A stretch of 64,000 nucleotides of DNA from a virus (lineage: Duplodnaviria; Caudoviricetes). The stretch's first letter is position 1; each line of letters begins with the position of its first letter. A program made the translations under genes and the position numbers. This document shows positions 14,722-53,563 of this stretch, piece by piece. Where the stretch lies: positions 1-64,000 of IMG/VR virus record IMGVR_UViG_3300028833_000075; one strand, written 5' to 3'. The notes under the pieces were generated by a model. The model did not search any database, was not told the origin of the DNA, and was given only the letters and a program-made list of their open reading frames with translations.

Positions 14722-14803
14722 TTAACTATGTAGGAAAATCGAAAAACATATAAAAACAAATAATCATTTGATACTAAACCGACAATAAAAAAGGAGATTT
14801 ATT

Positions 14804-15085: not shown

Positions 15086-15137
15086 TTATTTAGAAATTAT
15101 ATTTAATAAAAGATAATATTGTCGGTTTAATATATAC

Positions 15138-16416: not shown

Positions 16417-16575
16417 ATGACATATTGGGATGAATTAACGGAAGAGCAGAAACGGAATTGCTATGAATCATATGTCGGTGATTGTATCTATGAGAACGGA
16501 GATAATGCAACATATTGGTCATATGATGAATGGTGTTCTGAATGCGAAAAATCTGGTGAAGCGTTATTTTTGTAA
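16417..16575 (+). CDS. small acidic protein, 52 aa, absent from the ORF track
   Basis: MTYWDELTEEQKRNCYESY...; preceded by GTGAAGTGTGATG. Confidence 0.5.
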   Translation: MTYWDELTEEQKRNCYESYVGDCIYENGDNATYWSYDEWCSECEKSGEALFL

Positions 16576-16618
16576 AATTGCTGTATAGAATCAATTAACA
16601 TACGAAAAGGGGGCTATA

Positions 16619-16828: not shown

Positions 16829-16969
16829 GTAGCTAAAATTGCTGTTTAATGGCAATACGGAAGCCAAAATCCGGCACCCATCCGGGATAGAAGCGGGGAG
16901 AAGTCGAGAAGCTAACTTGCACTAAGCCGAGCTGGTGAAAGGCCAGCATTTTAAATCTTAAATTGCTGA

Positions 16970-17194: not shown

Positions 17195-17393
17195 AGAACT
17201 TAACTTCGCAAAAGGAGCATATTCGGAATCGCAATCTTGCTGTATTACGAAGCGAAAAAAGGGGGTGGCGCTATGCAGAAAGCAGTTGATGAATTTAATA
17301 GCAAATATACTGTTCCTCAGTAGCATTGCCCGGAAATACGGGCATTAACAGATGTAAAGTTGATGTATAGCGAAGCAGTATAAAAAGAGGTAG

Positions 17394-46191: not shown

Positions 46192-46647
46192 TTACGCCAA
46201 TCTTGTAACTTCAACCCTCAGGTTACGAAGGTTGAGGGCGGGAGGGACAGCAGCAGGAGTAGCTCCTTCAGACGCGTTTTCAACGGCAACCGTATAACAA
46301 CATCCGACAGGTACGTCTACTATAGAGAATCCTGACACATTCCAGTATGCATCTACAACGGTTGGCGTTGCAGCGCTGATGCTGGCTTGATCAATTTCTC
46401 CGCCGATGGCGATCGCGAGCTGTATTTCTCCGGCGGTGCCTTCGGTTGGAACCGCAATATTACCGCTGTAAGCAACCCTATAACGTGCGAACCTGCCGCA
46501 TGGGTTATTTACAATTCCGCGAAGAGTTAAGATCCCGGAGCCGGGGCGATGAATAACATACCCACGAGAACATCCTATCTCATCGTCCAGAAGGGCAGAA
46601 GCGCCCGGCTGAACAAGCTGAGTAAGAACATAATTATATTGAGCCAT
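46192..46647 (-). CDS. beta-sandwich protein of the six-gene module
   Basis: HRPGSGILTLRG...GNIAVP...VPVGCC. Confidence 0.65.
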   Translation of the reverse strand: MAQYNYVLTQLVQPGASALLDDEIGCSRGYVIHRPGSGILTLRGIVNNPCGRFARYRVAYSGNIAVPTEGTAGEIQLAIAIGGEIDQASISAATPTVVDAYWNVSGFSIVDVPVGCCYTVAVENASEGATPAAVPPALNLRNLRVEVTRLA

Positions 46648-46682
46648 AAAGCATTTCTCCTTTGTCAAAATTAGATAGAACT

Positions 46683-46710
46683 AAAAACAGGAGGTCGTAA
46701 AGACCTCCTG
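46683..46710 (-). terminator. intrinsic terminator
   Basis: CAGGAGGTC/GACCTCCTG stem followed by U5 on the - strand. Confidence 0.65.
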
Positions 46711-46723
46711 AGATGACAATTAA

Positions 46724-47422
46724 TTAAACATTCCCGCAACCGCAACCAAAGTTCTGATTCTGGCAGCAGTTAGGATTCTGAACAATATAAGCCGGGCGAG
46801 CGGTCGGCGCAAGATATTGCTCCAGAGCATTCGTCTGATTGTCCTGACTGGCCTGGAACCGATCTCCAAGAGCGTTAAACGACGCGGCTGTACGATAGTT
46901 CTGATTAGCGTCACGCAGCGCATCAATTGTATTCTGCATGCCCGCAATGCGGTTTTCATAATTCTGCTTAATACCATCCATCTCAAGCTGACAAAGTTTA
47001 TCGATAATCTTCTGATTGTTCGCGTCACAGTTGGCGCGAGTAGCAGCACCCTCCTGAGCAATGGCGGTCTGTACTCCTGCCGTCGCAAGGCGATTTTCAC
47101 AACAACAATTCTGGAAGGAATTCTGCATCTGGAAATATTGATTCATATCTGACATCTGACGGGCATTTGCAGAAATCTCTGCCTGGGCGAATCCGTTTGA
47201 CACGGCGTTTGTCAGCCCGTTAATTCCATTCATGATGGCATTCTGATCAAATCCACGCTGGACGTTTGAGTAAGAATTGTTTCCACCGAAACCATTTCCG
47301 CCCCATCCAAACATAGCCATCCAGATCAGTAAAAACCACAGTCCGTTTCCACCAAACATGTCGTTTCCATAACCTGCGGGTGCAACCGGCATATACATGC
47401 CACCATTGTTGTTTTCCATCAT
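46724..47422 (-). CDS. Gly/Asn/Gln-rich protein with hydrophobic segment, CCC motif and coiled coil (six-gene module)
   Basis: MPVAPA...WFLLIWMAMFGWGGNGFGG...NCCCENR...GCGC; AGGAG RBS before ATG 47422. Confidence 0.7.
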   Translation of the reverse strand: MMENNNGGMYMPVAPAGYGNDMFGGNGLWFLLIWMAMFGWGGNGFGGNNSYSNVQRGFDQNAIMNGINGLTNAVSNGFAQAEISANARQMSDMNQYFQMQNSFQNCCCENRLATAGVQTAIAQEGAATRANCDANNQKIIDKLCQLEMDGIKQNYENRIAGMQNTIDALRDANQNYRTAASFNALGDRFQASQDNQTNALEQYLAPTARPAYIVQNPNCCQNQNFGCGCGNV

Positions 47423-47888
47423 AAGGATCACTCCTTTCAGCAATTTGGGTTTAAACCCATGACGATGGAAATAAGTCAACACGAGAACGCGAATTCGCTA
47501 TAGAGTTGTTGACGATCTCTTGGTGTTATGAAATTGTAAACTGCCCTGCGATCAATTAAGGTCGCAGGGCGAAATATTGCAATTAGATTCTCCTATATTC
47601 CATATAGCTTAACGTTTCACTATATATCACTGTCTGTTTCGAGACATGCGAAAGAATCTAATGAACAATTGATTTTAATTAATAAAAGATCTTATTACTT
47701 CGTAGCATAATTTTGTCCGAGGTTGGGCATAAGCCAATTCTCATGCCCGTATCCTCTATCGTACAGATCACTTTAAGGTCTTGATATACTTTCACCCTTT
47801 GCCACAAGTCTTGTGACCTGCTACTTCGTGATACATACTCACTGCACTTTTTGAGTTTGAACAGCACAAGGACGATCGGTTGTGATTA

Positions 47889-48095
47889 TTACAGAGTGAT
47901 ATCACATTTATTTAACGGAATCGCATTGCTAGCCGTTGTCGTATAAGTCCAGCTCGGATAGGTTATCGTGTCATACTTCTTGTTTCCATCCGCATATCCT
48001 TGACTGTAAGCATCGTCAAGCATCTTCTGGAGTTCATCCTTTGTGAGTTCAATTTTTCCATCTTTGTTCTTTTCGATAATAACAATTCGACTCAT
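47889..48095 (-). CDS. hypothetical protein
   Basis: MSRIVIIEK... after AAAGGA RBS. Confidence 0.55.
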   Translation of the reverse strand: MSRIVIIEKNKDGKIELTKDELQKMLDDAYSQGYADGNKKYDTITYPSWTYTTTASNAIPLNKCDITL

Positions 48096-48132
48096 AATTA
48101 TTCCTTTCTGTAGCATTGTGACTGCTACCAAC

Positions 48133-48618
48133 TACTTCGTAATACAGCAATATTGCGACCGTTGCCAGGAAGATCGGTGCATTGAATATCCCGGTTACCG
48201 GAGACACAGGAACGGATATAACAAACATTAGAATCACTTGGACAAGTCAACTTGGTTATCATTTACAAGTCACAACATCAAATGGAACGATTAGGATTAT
48301 AAAATGTGATGCATAATTTTCCTTTTGCGATTTTGTGCTTATGTCGGCAGTTTCATGTACTCGGTACGGATAAAGTAAATCGTTAGAGTTACGGTAGTGC
48401 TTGCAAGCGGATTTCCATTTGAATCATAAACACGGAATGTCCAGTTTCCACTACCTCCGACATAGTGTTCCGACCAACAGTTGTTTGTTATCTTTGTGTC
48501 AATAATAATTCGTGTCGGAGATATAGTGGTTGTGATGTATCCGCTTGCAGTTGTTGTTGCCGTTATTTCTATTACGCCAAACAACTCCTCATTAAACAAT
48601 TTGCTGTTTAACGAAGTA
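48133..48618. mobile_element. putative invertible (shufflon-like) segment with two alternative fibre C-termini
   Basis: inverted repeats TACTTCGTAATACAGCAA (48133-48150) and TTGCTGTTTAACGAAGTA (48601-48618), 16/18 identical, around back-to-back reading frames. Confidence 0.7.
48143..48316 (+). other. silent, start-less alternative fibre-tip cassette (57 codons)
   Basis: frame YSNIATVARKIGALNIPVTGDTGTDITNIRITWTSQLGYHLQVTTSNGTIRIIKCDA* begins inside the repeat, in the same register as LNSK of 48339-48752. Confidence 0.65.
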
Positions 48619-48752
48619 ATCTGACCTTCTACTGTTTTTCCGGATGGGACAGTTCCAATTTTATTATTTATTGTAGTTATGCTATCGTTTAGTGCATCAA
48701 TCTGCCCCTCAATTCCACCTACGTGGAAAACGCTGTTCGCCATTGCTGTCAC
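48339..48752 (-). CDS. short fibre/receptor-binding protein with switchable C-terminus
   Basis: EGQI..LN repeats, then an LNSK junction and a beta-rich tip. Confidence 0.7.
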   Translation of the reverse strand: MTAMANSVFHVGGIEGQIDALNDSITTINNKIGTVPSGKTVEGQITSLNSKLFNEELFGVIEITATTTASGYITTTISPTRIIIDTKITNNCWSEHYVGGSGNWTFRVYDSNGNPLASTTVTLTIYFIRTEYMKLPT

Positions 48753-49057
48753 TCCTCTTCTTCAGACTCAGGTTCCGGTTCCGGTTCAGGCAGATCAGCA
48801 ATCGTGCCAAACCGCCTTACCTCAATCTGTATACCGTCTGAACTGCGAATGATATACGCATATCCTACCTGATTGTCACGGGTGGCGAGATAGGATTCTG
48901 CCGCTCCCAGATAGCCGTACGCCGCTCTGCGAGTCTGCTCCAGATCATTGTTGTGTGTACGGCTGTCAACAATCTTCGGATATCCCTCCGGATCGTTGGC
49001 ATGATAACCGTCAGCATTTACATACCCCATGTGTACCTCGTAGATTTCCCGCTTCAT
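48749..49057 (-). CDS. hypothetical fibre-associated protein
   Basis: ORF with PEPEPE acidic tail between fibre genes. Confidence 0.55.
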   Translation of the reverse strand: MKREIYEVHMGYVNADGYHANDPEGYPKIVDSRTHNNDLEQTRRAAYGYLGAAESYLATRDNQVGYAYIIRSSDGIQIEVRRFGTIADLPEPEPEPESEEEE

Positions 49058-49137
49058 TTGAATCATCCACCTTTCCATTTTATAACTAATCATATTTAAC
49101 TTTTGGGATGTTTGTTAAACAGCAATTTTGCAGAATA

Positions 49138-50505
49138 TTATGCAACAAGTTCAAACAAATGCACCGATGTCCATTGCGTAGATACTTCAACAGTTATGGT
49201 ATAGCCACTATATGAAACATTAGCTCCGGTAGCCTCCTTTATCGGCGTGATACTACCGCCAGAGGTATTGGCACGCACCATATACATACCAGAGTATTCT
49301 GCGTGTCCATTCCATGATTGGATAAGCAAAATTCCACCTACGCTTCTCCCGATATTAATAACGTGCGTTTTTATGGCTTCTGAGTAATTGGCATAAACTT
49401 GTCTAATTCCCATGTTGAGTATCTTGCTGTTTAAATTGTTAAAACCCCATGCATTATTGAATGAACCAATTACATCGTTAGGATTATTGTTATCATTATA
49501 TGAGTTGACATACAACGAACCATGATTTACATCAATTGCTCTGGATAACATTCCTTGATAGTGTTCTGCTTTGAAACTTGTTGTTGCGGAACTCATAACG
49601 AAATATATTGCTTCTTGCGTATAATTCGACATATTTGCTATTTCAGCAGATAATGCAGTCGCTAAAGAAGATTCTGAAGAAAAAGTGCCAAGATTTTTAT
49701 ATGTAAATTTGCTATTTATGGTATCAAGATCATTCCCTATGTCTGCAACATCCTGTGCATTCTCGTTAATTGCCGCGACCAGACTTGTTTTTGCTGTGGT
49801 ATTCAAATCACCAAGCGTCCCAATCCGTCCGGCGAGAACATCAAACTCATTAGATGTAATCGAACTTGCCCCCGCAACGAACAGTAACCCCACCTTAACG
49901 GTGGAAGTTCCCTTAACACTGGAACAACTCAGCGTGATTGAACCGTCCGCAGGAGTGATTGTGATGTCTGCAAGGAAAGCGGAAGGATCACCCAACTCAA
50001 TCATCACGGCTTTCATGTCTGCCGTAACATCTGCAATCGTTGTGGTGTGAGTATACGCTCCGCTCGTGTTGGTTACAGTATCCAGTGTTTTCTCAATCAG
50101 CTTTGTTCCGGGTGGAACATCCCATGTGCCGTCACCCTTCAGGAAATATTTCTGCGTTCCGGCTCCCGGAGCAGGAACAAGACCGCTCGTTCCTGTTGAG
50201 GATGTGGTTGCTCCGGTGAATACATCTGGTTCAGCGATCTCTTTCCATGTACCATCCCCAAACAACACCTTGTTTTGATCGCCAGCGCTAGGAGCAGGAA
50301 CCAATCCGTGTGTGCCTACGGTAGAAGATGTTGCTCCTGACATGTCTGATGGATCGGCTACATTTTTCCAAGTGCCATCGCCAAATAAAGCTTTTCCTTG
50401 ATCCCCTGCCGCAGGAGCTGGAACGAGACCTGAAGTTCCTGCGGTTGTTGAAGTTGAACCAGTCATTTGAGAAGAGACAGGTACGTCAAAAATTGCTGTA
50501 GGCAA
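49138..50505 (-). CDS. tail-fibre protein with three GLVPAP repeats and two (L/I)NSK-bounded C-terminal modules
   Basis: GLVPAP.AG.Q...L.GDGTW x3; TAKTSLVAAINE; INSK and LNSK junctions. Confidence 0.75.
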   Translation of the reverse strand: MPTAIFDVPVSSQMTGSTSTTAGTSGLVPAPAAGDQGKALFGDGTWKNVADPSDMSGATSSTVGTHGLVPAPSAGDQNKVLFGDGTWKEIAEPDVFTGATTSSTGTSGLVPAPGAGTQKYFLKGDGTWDVPPGTKLIEKTLDTVTNTSGAYTHTTTIADVTADMKAVMIELGDPSAFLADITITPADGSITLSCSSVKGTSTVKVGLLFVAGASSITSNEFDVLAGRIGTLGDLNTTAKTSLVAAINENAQDVADIGNDLDTINSKFTYKNLGTFSSESSLATALSAEIANMSNYTQEAIYFVMSSATTSFKAEHYQGMLSRAIDVNHGSLYVNSYNDNNNPNDVIGSFNNAWGFNNLNSKILNMGIRQVYANYSEAIKTHVINIGRSVGGILLIQSWNGHAEYSGMYMVRANTSGGSITPIKEATGANVSYSGYTITVEVSTQWTSVHLFELVA

Positions 50506-50527
50506 TTACATCAGCTCCTTTCATGCG

Positions 50528-53500
50528 TTATAATGTATGAACTACTTTCTTTTTTCTTTGCAGTGTTTTAGGTAAATCTCTTACTATGGTAATTGTTTCT
50601 TCTTCGTATGTCATTTCAAAAATAATTTGATGATTATCCTCTGTGGAAAAGATCTTTCTGTCATTTGGAAAAATATTTCCATGTGTAGGAGGAGAAGAAA
50701 TGAATTCAGATCCGCTTCTTATAGAATAAGTATTGATGCTTTCCGGTTTGGTATAAGAATATGAACCATATAAACCAAAATTATCGTTGTTGCCACTCTC
50801 ATCGCATCTTGTTACCTGAAACGTTGGGATTACATTATCAAGCGCAGAATATGTTATTCCGGTTATTGTGTCTGTTCCAAGCAAATTTGCTCCGTTGTAT
50901 GTTTCTAATGACAGCGTTCCAGTTCCATATTTAGACATGTAAAAACACCATGCAACTGGAATATAAATAGATACGCTTGATACGCCTGCTGCAACTGAAA
51001 CCCATTCGGTTTCCATATCCGGACCGAAACTGAGATTATACCTGTGCGTAAAATCCATTGAAGCAATATTAATTGTTAATAAGGCAGTATCTCCACCCGT
51101 ATATGCCGTTTTATCAAGTGAGCATGTACTTTTTGTGATATGATAGTGACCAACGACGCTAACATTGCTTGCAGGCATCGTGAATTGATTGTTCGTAATT
51201 GTAACTTCAGGCGTTGTTTCGTATCCATCAAACGCATAACTCATTGATGGAGTTTGGCTTAAAGTGATTGTGTCTCCATAATTAGCGGTATCCGACGAGG
51301 CCGTAACAGTTCCGCCGACAGCAGGATCTGCGCTTGTGGTTATATTATAATCTATTTTTTCGAAAGAAGCAGTAACAGTAGTGTTGGCAGCTGGCATTGT
51401 TATTGTAGTAGATGCAGTTGATGCGCTGCCAATTGTGCCTCCCGTTGTCGTCCATCCGGTAAAACGATAGCCTGTTCCAGCGTTTGCAGTAATAGTTATC
51501 ACATCGTCATAATACCCGGATGTTGAATCAAGTGTAACACTACCGCTTCCATTAGGAGAAACCTCTCCGGTTAATGTATAGGAAACATGAGTAAAGTTAG
51601 CAGTAACCGTTGCGTTTCCTGCGCCCATTGTAAACGTTGTTGGGTTGGTTGTTGTGCTGGATAAAGTACCTGATGTATTCGTCCAGTTTGCAAATGCATA
51701 TCCGGTTGCTGGAGTCGCTGTTAATTCTTTGGTAGATGTATATTGTATTGTGTCGCCTGCCGTAACAGTACCGCCGCCTGTTGGGGAAACGGTTGTTGTT
51801 AATGTATAGTTGTTTTTTGTGAAGTTCGCAGTAACTGTTGCATTTCCGGCACCTATTGTAAACGTTGTTGGATTTGCGGTCGTGCTGGATAATGTTCCTG
51901 CGGTTTTGGACCAACTGCTAAATGAATAACCACTGCTTGCTGTTGCCGTTAATTGTTTCTGGCTGTTGTAGTTCATAGAACCGCCAGCAGTTACGGTGCC
52001 TCCTCCGGTCGGAGAAACAGCAGTAGTTAAAGTATAACTGTTGATTGTAAAATTAGCAGTAACAGTTGCATTGCCGTTTGGCATCGTATATGTCGTTGAC
52101 GCGGCATTGGCATTAGCAAGTGTACCGCCACTTGATGTTGTCCAGTTTTTAAATGTATAACCAGTTGATGCGGTTGCAGAAATACTACACTTATCGTTAT
52201 AGTATTTCGTACCTCCGCCGGAAACAGTACCTCCTCCGGAAGGGCTGACCGATAGCGTTAATGTTCTCTGAATATGTGTGAAGTTTGCTGTAACGGTCGC
52301 ATTGGCATTCGGCATCGTATAAGTAGTTGATGCAGAATTAGCGTTAGCAATCGTACCTCCACTGGAAGTAGTCCAGTTTTTAAATGAATATCCGGTCGCG
52401 GCAGTTGCTGAAATAGTAACTTTATCATTATAATACTTCGTACCGCCTCCGGAAGTTGTACCGCCTCCGGAAGGACTAACTGCCAGCGTAAGTGTTCGTT
52501 GGACGTGTGTGAAATTAGCAGTAACAGTCGCATTGCCAGCACCCATTGTAAATGTCGTGGGATTCGTTGTTGTGCTGGATAGAGTACCGGCATTTTTACT
52601 CCAACTACTAAACGCGTATCCTGTGGAAGCCGTGGCTGTTAAGCTTTTTGTTGAACCGTAGTTCATAGATCCGCCAGCGGTAACGCTTCCTCCTCCGGAA
52701 GGGGAAACTGCAGTCGTCAAAGTATAGCTATTAATTTTAGCATTAGCTGTAACTGTAACGTTTCCAGCCGGCATCGTAAAGGTGGTGCTTGCTGAATTCG
52801 CGTTTCCAAACGTGCCACCGTTATTGGATGTCCAATTCTTAAATGTGTAGCCGGTCGATGCTGTTGCTGAAATATTGTTGGAAGAACCGTAAGATTTGCT
52901 GCCTCCGCCGCTTACGCTGGAAATGCCCGTTCCTTTTGCTACAGTAAGGGTATAACTGTTTGTTCCAAAATTTGCCGTAACGGTGGCCGCGCTGGTCCCC
53001 ATCGTGAATGTGGTAGGGTTTGAGGTTGTACTTGACAGCGTACCAGCGGTTTTACTCCAACTACTAAAGTGACGTCCTGTGCTCGGGGTAGCGGTTAAAC
53101 TCTTGGTCGAATTATAGCTCATTGCTCCACCAGCGGTCACGCTGCCATAACCGCTGGGGGAAACCGTGGTTGTTAAAGTCCATGTTTGGTTTGCGGTTTG
53201 CATTGTGACCGTTGAAGCATTCTGGTGAGCAAAGCCATTGCTTATAATGGCCCCGTCTCTTGCTACTGTGAGATAGATTTGCTTTCCAGCAAGAGCCGTC
53301 CCTCCGGAGCCAATGGTAAAATCGGTTGTGTACACACGACTGGAACCGTAAATATACAACGTCGGTGACAACGCCACCCTGTTGTTGCCTGACGAATCAC
53401 AAAGGTATAATGTAAACGTTCCGGTTTTACCATTGTTTTCTTTCCAGGATGGCTTATCTTTGAATGTAATTGTACCACTCGGGTATTCACCTGTTCCTAA

Positions 53501-53563
53501 CGAGATGCCTAATGAAGCAGGCCATTGGTATACGCCAGAAATGGAACCAGTCTTTGTTCCCAT
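50528..53563 (-). CDS. 1011-aa virion protein with ~10 InlB B-repeat (Listeria-Bacteroides/Flg_new-like) domains
   Basis: tandem LT..VSP.GGG.V.GGG...L.AT...GY.F..W...TTF.M...ATVTANF units. Confidence 0.8.
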   Translation of the reverse strand: MGTKTGSISGVYQWPASLGISLGTGEYPSGTITFKDKPSWKENNGKTGTFTLYLCDSSGNNRVALSPTLYIYGSSRVYTTDFTIGSGGTALAGKQIYLTVARDGAIISNGFAHQNASTVTMQTANQTWTLTTTVSPSGYGSVTAGGAMSYNSTKSLTATPSTGRHFSSWSKTAGTLSSTTSNPTTFTMGTSAATVTANFGTNSYTLTVAKGTGISSVSGGGSKSYGSSNNISATASTGYTFKNWTSNNGGTFGNANSASTTFTMPAGNVTVTANAKINSYTLTTAVSPSGGGSVTAGGSMNYGSTKSLTATASTGYAFSSWSKNAGTLSSTTTNPTTFTMGAGNATVTANFTHVQRTLTLAVSPSGGGTTSGGGTKYYNDKVTISATAATGYSFKNWTTSSGGTIANANSASTTYTMPNANATVTANFTHIQRTLTLSVSPSGGGTVSGGGTKYYNDKCSISATASTGYTFKNWTTSSGGTLANANAASTTYTMPNGNATVTANFTINSYTLTTAVSPTGGGTVTAGGSMNYNSQKQLTATASSGYSFSSWSKTAGTLSSTTANPTTFTIGAGNATVTANFTKNNYTLTTTVSPTGGGTVTAGDTIQYTSTKELTATPATGYAFANWTNTSGTLSSTTTNPTTFTMGAGNATVTANFTHVSYTLTGEVSPNGSGSVTLDSTSGYYDDVITITANAGTGYRFTGWTTTGGTIGSASTASTTITMPAANTTVTASFEKIDYNITTSADPAVGGTVTASSDTANYGDTITLSQTPSMSYAFDGYETTPEVTITNNQFTMPASNVSVVGHYHITKSTCSLDKTAYTGGDTALLTINIASMDFTHRYNLSFGPDMETEWVSVAAGVSSVSIYIPVAWCFYMSKYGTGTLSLETYNGANLLGTDTITGITYSALDNVIPTFQVTRCDESGNNDNFGLYGSYSYTKPESINTYSIRSGSEFISSPPTHGNIFPNDRKIFSTEDNHQIIFEMTYEEETITIVRDLPKTLQRKKKVVHTL

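Follow-up and report, generated by a model that had tools for sequence, protein, structure and literature searches.

Does this phage carry, at the end of a small tail-fibre gene, a segment that can be inverted so that a silent tip takes the place of the expressed one, and which kind of enzyme would turn it? The gene lies in the window (the whole stretch of DNA analysed, 64,000 nt), taken from the start of an IMG/VR phage genome of 150,578 bp. The genome is complete, with direct terminal repeats, has a G+C content of 40%, and comes from sheep-gut metagenomes. Every gene around the fibre and silent-tip locus is on the minus strand, where a 1011-aa protein is followed by a 455-aa fibre-like protein, a 114-aa protein, the fibre (134/137 aa) and, after a gap of 243 nt, a 68-aa protein (Table 1). 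This gap, which extends from the fibre stop to the ATG of the 68-aa gene, contains the silent frame. The 114-aa gene is kept as the upstream neighbour of the fibre slot in L002, L005, L007, and L008. No blastn match to positions 46500-50600 was found among cultured phages, close relatives of the 137-aa and the 114-aa protein were not found in IMG/VR, and no near-identical second genome was found.

Table 1. Positions of the fibre locus, its sites, and other features of the phage (window coordinates).
Feature	Position	Strand	Remarks
Lambda-type tyrosine integrase, 371 aa	13229..14344	-	sole recombinase gene in the genome; arm-binding, SAM-like, and catalytic domains
J'/M copy among early accessory genes	17229..17254	+	matches the reverse complement of 48135-48158 at 23/24
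Further J'/M copies	16571-16587; 16831-16858; 130.1-130.9 kb		the last outside the window
68-aa gene, no assigned function	47889..48095	-	next downstream; ATG at 48095; outside the invertible segment
Site J'	48133..48158	+	TACTTCG TAA TAC AGC AA plus TATTGCGA; in-frame TAA 48140-48142
Silent cassette	48146..48316	+	start-less 56-codon frame plus stop
Small tail-fibre gene	48339..48743	-	134 aa from ATG 48743; on record as P0002
Expressed tip cassette (LFNEELFG...MKLPT*)	48339..48600	-	
Site J	48601..48618	-	TACTTCG TTA AAC AGC AA; T-S-L-N-S-K at the stalk/tip boundary
114-aa gene	48749..49093	-	precedes the fibre gene and overlaps its start
J'-type site	49111..49131	+	just past the stop of the 455-aa gene; 16/18 inverted repeat with J
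455-aa fibre-like gene	49138..50505	-	phrog_4302; tail-fibre PHROG matches weak
J-type junctions within the 455-aa gene	about 49709-49721; 49424-49436		..TINSK.. and ..NLNSK.., respectively
1011-aa virion-region protein	50528-53563	-	nine Flg_new_2 (InlB B-repeat-like) domains, E = 9e-142

The fibre gene, the paired sites, and the silent frame

The initial annotation placed the fibre gene at 48339-48752. The gene is present, with the qualification that translation more likely starts at the ATG at 48743, as in P0002, and GTG 48752 is an in-frame codon upstream. Its N-terminal stalk or adaptor (MANSVF..INNKIGTVPSGKTVEGQITSLNSK) leads into a C-terminal tip of 86 aa. Seven fibre homologues have the sequence MA.SVF..IN.KIGTVPSG.TVEGQI..LNS[KN] in common and are unrelated immediately beyond it. 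Homologue P0008 has a weak XkdV_N match, P0016 (90 aa) a Phage_fiber_rpt domain, and genes related to the small fibre gene are placed after Baseplate_J and Tail_P2_I genes. The window's expressed tip recurs in L003 (93% nucleotide identity), where the N-terminus is different. For the 134-aa fibre and for P0009, AlphaFold gave models with mean pLDDT values of 55 and 60, insufficient for a fold search, which contain only N-terminal helices followed by beta strands. A search of species genomes with the stalk/adaptor returned only unrelated surface proteins of alphaproteobacterial MAGs (L017-L019). These are tandem signal-peptide proteins in which an 18-aa stretch is 78% identical to the phage stalk block INxKIGTVP / SG[KEQ]TVEGQI, and they carry no J site.

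Here, J denotes the site inside the fibre gene (..LNS[KN]) and J' its inverted partner just past the tip, usually with an in-frame TAA. The two arms of the reported inverted repeat, TACTTCGTAATACAGCAA (48133-48150, plus strand) and TACTTCGTTAAACAGCAA (48601-48618, minus strand), are present and match at 16 of 18 positions. The fibre gene was said to cross the site as S-L-N-S-K, and its minus-strand reading is indeed T-S-L-N-S-K; in the same register the plus arm reads T-S-stop-Y-S-N. The reverse complement of J' lies about 40 nt upstream of the ATG of the 68-aa gene. By itself the inverted repeat is no more than chance would give, since a shuffled window is expected to contain 0.83 repeats that match at 16/18 or better within 600 nt and the window has three. 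Two of these three use one arm (48598-48618), the second partner being 49111-49128. The third (14770-14787 / 15117-15134, GATACTAAACCGACAATA / TATATTAAACCGACAATA) encloses ~330 bp and is found ~430 bp from the integrase gene. Chance was rejected as the explanation of the locus, given a genome-wide excess of the motif TTGCTGT[AT]T[AT]A (9 in the genome against 0.6 expected) and a layout that recurs in many loci.

In a codon comparison of nine genes from seven lineages, AAC and AGC are each used in 9/9, with TT(A/G) before them, while the flanking codons of KIGTVPSG.TVEGQI have reached saturation in their synonymous positions. The constraint on the junction therefore acts on the DNA. A palindrome lies around 48587-48616, and a hix/gix-like 26-bp palindrome at J was considered as the site and rejected: it is not kept in other J sites, it is peculiar to the expressed tip of this fibre, and in the comparison of 37 sites conservation is confined to one arm and the core. 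Degenerate half-copies of the left arm of J' are also present downstream of the 68-aa gene (47816-47835, ACCTGCTACTTCGTGATACA; 47696-47703, TTACTTCGTAG), each followed by an in-register stop.

The convergent plus-strand frame (SNIATVARKIG...IKCDA*, ending at 48316) was described as start-less and as separated from the expressed tip by 22 bp. Both statements were borne out. The frame continues in the same register after the TAA, the first start codon comes no earlier than codon 13, and the converging stops are exactly 22 nt apart (48317-48338). An exhaustive profile-free search found the silent frame to be 73% identical to P0009 (68 aa) over residues 4-55, and also found P0016. P0009 is an expressed gene in L008 and directly follows a 114-aa-like gene there, i.e. 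it occupies the slot of the window's fibre. Compared with the P0009 gene, the silent frame has pS 0.66, pN 0.22, a dN/dS of 0.16, and one in-frame indel; the neutral share of the divergence is at most about 7%. Judged by this homology and substitution pattern, the silent frame is a genuine coding sequence, an alternative fibre module.

That the frame encodes a silent alternative C-terminus was thus correct as to a real fibre module (by the P0009 homology and the dN/dS), and too narrow as to its extent. The module is not just a tip but a 5'-truncated whole small fibre gene, which lacks roughly the first 14 codons and retains ..KIGALNIPVTGDTGTDITNI, the stalk repeat, and a tip of ~29 aa. Since it retains the stalk unit, fusion at J would duplicate one such unit, and this partial stalk-repeat duplication in the fused product is a counterpoint to a switch. 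Right after the fibre stop there is also what looks like a beheaded gene start on the minus strand (48298-48326, AAAAGGAAAATTATG), with a good RBS and an ATG followed by five codons only. It resembles the start region of the 68-aa gene (48084-48107) at 71% and adjoins the end of the silent cassette.

Cassette exchange, related loci, and the linked recombinase

Strains differ by whole cassettes, replaced exactly between J and J'. L002, a contig of 4.2 kb, matches the window at 99.5% identity in two blocks (52348-49709 and 49122-48601) and has a different tip from 48600 onward. In its 455-aa gene the last 190 codons are replaced exactly between ..TINS[KN].. (49709) and the 49111-49131 site. These 190 codons are also swapped en bloc in run X3, the mosaic breakpoint of L002 and X3 lying at 49122. 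Runs X3 and X4, which belong to another study, contain a relative with about 48158-48600 replaced and both flanks retained. The X4 variant diverges directly after 48158, and the mosaic breakpoint of L002, L003, and X3/X4 falls at site J.

More than 20 loci of metagenomic phages have an inverted J/J' pair. About 18 emerged when IMG/VR was scanned with the reverse-complemented site and the hits were screened, and further loci were reached through the protein homologues. Nine loci have a start-less second tip (the window, L003, the upstream gene of L005, L006, L037, L047, L053, L055, and L088). These silent frames are convergent, are 57-111 codons long (111 in L003 and 91 in L006), end 2-109 nt from the expressed stop, and encode beta-rich-looking domains that are unrelated to each other; all nine are intact. 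No homologue of the L006 silent frame was found. In about a dozen single-tip loci, J' is mostly 0-22 nt past the stop, with three outliers at -11, 64, and 66 nt. In two of the single-tip loci (L071:1889-1901 and L080:11225-11237) the frame from J' meets no stop for 80 and 123 codons and crosses the expressed tip in antisense, which may be chance or an antisense-coded alternative. Some close relatives (L002, L005, and L007) have no silent cassette, which counts against a switch.

The fibre genes that bear J have unrelated N-termini and range from 130 to more than 745 codons. Across the 37 sites compared, CGT.A.ACAGCAA is kept and the left flank (T)ACTT loosely so, while the other flank is free. 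The ACAGCAA that the initial annotation named as shared between the arms is the invariant core of the whole site family. In 12/18 J' sites TAA stands where J has TTA. The J and J' 17-mers of the window are identical to those of G001, a 34-kb record that includes L037, and the flanking genes are unrelated. G001 is complete by CheckV estimate, has no end repeats, and contains only two copies of the site, J and J'. Searches for relatives of its silent tip and for other carriers of its fibre-side flank returned only already-known loci.

In G001 a gene for a tyrosine recombinase of 360 aa ends 322 nt from J'. The protein has SAM_4 and catalytic domains and no arm-binding domain, and it matches XerA, XerC, XerD, and integron integrases best. 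Such an armless Xer-like recombinase is encoded 0.3-1.1 kb beyond J' in seven loci (L037/G001, L029, L055, L059, L073, L115, and L116). The homologues in L029, L055, L059, and L073 are 60-67% identical, and those beside J' in L115 and L116 are partial copies. G001 also encodes a separate large serine recombinase, presumably its integrase. More distant homologues, annotated as "integrase", lie between the last tail gene and the holin in L118 (PP197244.1, 17645-18640) and L119 (MW478291.1, 21639-22616). The cultured carriers are Terrisporobacter phage TPELB_ph1, which has a second integrase besides the Xer-like enzyme, and Clostridium phage phiCp-D (Clostridium perfringens). No convincing inverted repeat was found at the fibre 3' ends of these two phages.

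As noted at the outset, no invertase gene is adjacent to the locus in the window, and a homologue of the G001 type is absent from the complete 150-kb genome as well. A search of the whole genome for a second recombinase found no serine recombinase (PF00239, PF07508, and PF02796; controls matched) and no IS110-type enzyme. The phage's own integrase is encoded 34 kb from the locus, is 17% identical to the G001 enzyme, and has no NCBIfam match.

Readings of the locus

The coding silent frame, the recurring J/J' pairs, the linked recombinase, and the 17-mers identical to those of G001 together point to a module for the inversion of tail-fibre tips, with two cassettes and of the tyrosine-recombinase (Rin/shufflon-like) kind, closest to Rin and lacking a recombinase of its own. 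This reading is given a probability of about 0.6. That the locus belongs to the tyrosine-recombinase kind of tip switch is well supported. Its being a competent switch in this phage, served in trans, is rated as probable. Flipping is unproven here, as the cognate recombinase of the relatives is absent from this genome, and we infer it for this phage.

The constant stalk ends at J (..ITSLNSK), and the segment 48151-48600 consists of the expressed tip and the converging start-less module, closed by J'. One reciprocal exchange within the 7-bp ACAGCAA would flip this segment. The stalk would retain its TTA (Leu) and be joined in frame to ..NIATVARKIGALNIP...IKCDA*, while the former tip would fall silent, placed behind the TAA of J'. 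The recombinase would be needed in trans, the candidates being the phage's own distant integrase, a co-resident prophage, and the host. An enzyme acting at every copy of the element would also give large inversions or, through the 16/18 repeat formed by 49111-49128 and J, turn the 114-aa gene together with the 5' end of the fibre gene, which is a counterpoint to a switch.

No strand-changing joint was detected in the assembled contigs, which drop rare variants, of two source runs and two other-study runs, and the source-run contigs span the locus in the reference orientation only. Since contigs are blind to rare variants, the single orientation was not counted against inversion. The fused protein of the flipped state (at least 99 aa) is absent from the protein collection, which is weak evidence.

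Next in standing, though unlikely, is that the locus is a locked relic: the module would derive from a relative with the recombinase or from an inversion long ago, would no longer flip, and would hold the silent cassette as a recent, undecayed fossil. The missing cognate recombinase favours it, and so does L047, a close relative of G001 with two tips and intact sites in which the adjacent recombinase gene is absent, so loss of the enzyme does happen. Such a fossil is at odds with the state of the silent copy, which has an intact frame, a natural stop, and the low dN/dS and neutral share given above. The nine independent start-less frames, intact without exception, are also hard to explain unless they are expressed at times.

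Two further explanations start from the other copies of the element and are both considered improbable, more so than a relic. The J'/M element is present about 11 times, grouped into three clusters at 16.5-17.4 kb, 48.1-49.1 kb, and 129.8-130.9 kb. The majority of copies stand 0-45 nt before an RBS and are oriented with the gene that follows (about 8 genes, in both orientations relative to J), so the site is not private to the tip switch. A sigma-70-like match overlaps the copy at 49111-49131 and none is present at 48133-48158; intergenic copies within the scanned 47500-49300 have no terminator hairpin. A role of the site as a general promoter was rejected, the copies being only about 11 and confined to the three clusters. 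In L002:3882-4203 two small genes that are 114 kb apart in the genome (130114-130290 and 16573-16730) follow the fibre gene in tandem. Each junction lies at a J'/M copy (the coverage is 4.9x, and assembly chimerism is possible), and these units of element plus gene look as if they were moving cassettes.

According to the first of these explanations no dedicated enzyme exists. J and J' would be a conserved linker or regulatory box, comparable to the PeSL cassettes or His boxes of T4-type phages, general recombination would now and then swap the modules there, and the inverted cassette would be a by-product of one such swap. The placement of the element before RBSs, the sigma-70-like match, and the genes from 130.1 kb and 16.57 kb joined at element copies in L002 all agree with this, and shuffling mediated by PeSL is documented (PMC2839356). 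However, the shared 13-18 bp are short for homologous recombination, and the systematic TAA/TTA difference and the one-armed conservation resemble a recombinase site. The linkage of a tyrosine recombinase to the site pair in seven loci, and the presence in the 34 kb of G001 of just J and J', speak against it too.

The second explanation, of equally low probability, is that a cassette system may operate across the genome with J'/M as its attachment site, driven by a recombinase for which the phage has no gene. It draws support from the 16.5-17.4 kb and 130 kb clusters and from the relocation of small accessory genes behind the fibre gene in L002. If it is true, one site family both flips tips and moves small accessory genes, an integron-like economy in a large phage that would depend on a Xer-like enzyme from a co-resident prophage or the host.

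Very improbable is an independent small gene of 44 aa, transcribed on the plus strand from TTG 48182: an AGGAAG precedes this TTG (codon 13) by 10 nt and 48182-48316 was called in the ORF listing, but there is no promoter-like site upstream on the plus strand, the similarity to P0009 extends upstream of the TTG, the first 34 codons of the L003 equivalent and the first 44 of the L006 one include no start, and all surrounding genes are on the minus strand.

Switches that swap tips allow a phage to hedge between receptors, and they therefore matter for predicting host range and for the dynamics of phages and bacteria in gut and rumen. The main value lies in the site family: a 13-18-nt LNS[KN] site in unrelated fibre genes of more than 20 metagenomic phages, often beside a Xer-like recombinase that is recorded in databases as an "integrase". 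Some members carry the enzyme and others are orphans, and the orphans raise the question of whether host range can change through a recombinase supplied in trans.

Comparison with known systems

The initial annotation likened the locus to the Mu G segment, the P1 C segment, and the R64 shufflon. The anatomy of an inversion switch stands; the class of enzyme, as indicated by the recombinase linked in relatives, is tyrosine (Rin/Rci-like) and not the serine invertase of Mu G and P1 C. In the Gin/G system of Mu, Cin/C of P1, and Min of p15B, as here, inversion swaps fibre C-termini for host range, and the constant 5' part is not within the inverted segment. Their enzymes are serine invertases, which act on symmetric 26-bp sites and with an enhancer, and their segments include chaperone genes, whereas here there is no serine recombinase, no chaperone ORF lies in the segment, and the sites are one-armed.

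The PeSL elements of T4-type phages, which combine a strong promoter with a terminator hairpin and serve general recombination (Arbiol et al. 2010, PMC2839356), are similar in being short, conserved and intergenic, in flanking small accessory genes, and in lying at the breakpoints where modules have been gained, lost or replaced between close relatives. The element described here is 13-26 nt long, has no hairpin in the scanned stretch, and is linked elsewhere to a tyrosine recombinase.

The sfx sites of R64 have a 7-bp core, one conserved arm, and one variable arm, an asymmetry proposed to limit Rci to inversions (PMC11852207). The site layout in the window matches, and in both systems the cassettes are alternative adhesin C-termini, by analogy only. 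The R64 cassettes belong to the PilV pilus adhesin of a plasmid and not to a phage fibre, the present genome lacks an Rci homologue, and the site sequence is unrelated.

The closest counterpart is the Rin shufflon, known from prophages of Bifidobacterium breve and B. longum (Mavrich et al. 2018, PMC6109161) and of Eggerthella lenta (PMC8778435). Both have a constant N-terminal part of a receptor-binding protein and start-less C-terminal cassettes headed by short, asymmetric, in-frame sites in inverted orientation. The armless XerD-like tyrosine recombinase found at the Rin locus occurs here only in relatives (L037/G001, L029, L055, L059, and L073), being absent beside the locus and from the whole genome. 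The rix site is the 11-bp TTCCCTAACCC, while the present site is CGT[TA]A[AT]ACAGCAA, which encodes LNS[KN], so membership of Rin proper is not supported. Rin has five cassettes against two here, and its inversion was observed where that of the window is inferred. The fibre families differ and the hosts probably do too (rumen/gut phages here, with recombinase homologues in phages of Clostridia), and only the present site also stands in front of accessory genes elsewhere in the genome. The same study of Rin (PMC6109161) also reports, at a site of 8 bp, a simpler ~500-bp inversion that has no flanking recombinase, for which a trans-acting invertase was proposed, and this recombinase-less inverted locus is the situation found in the window.
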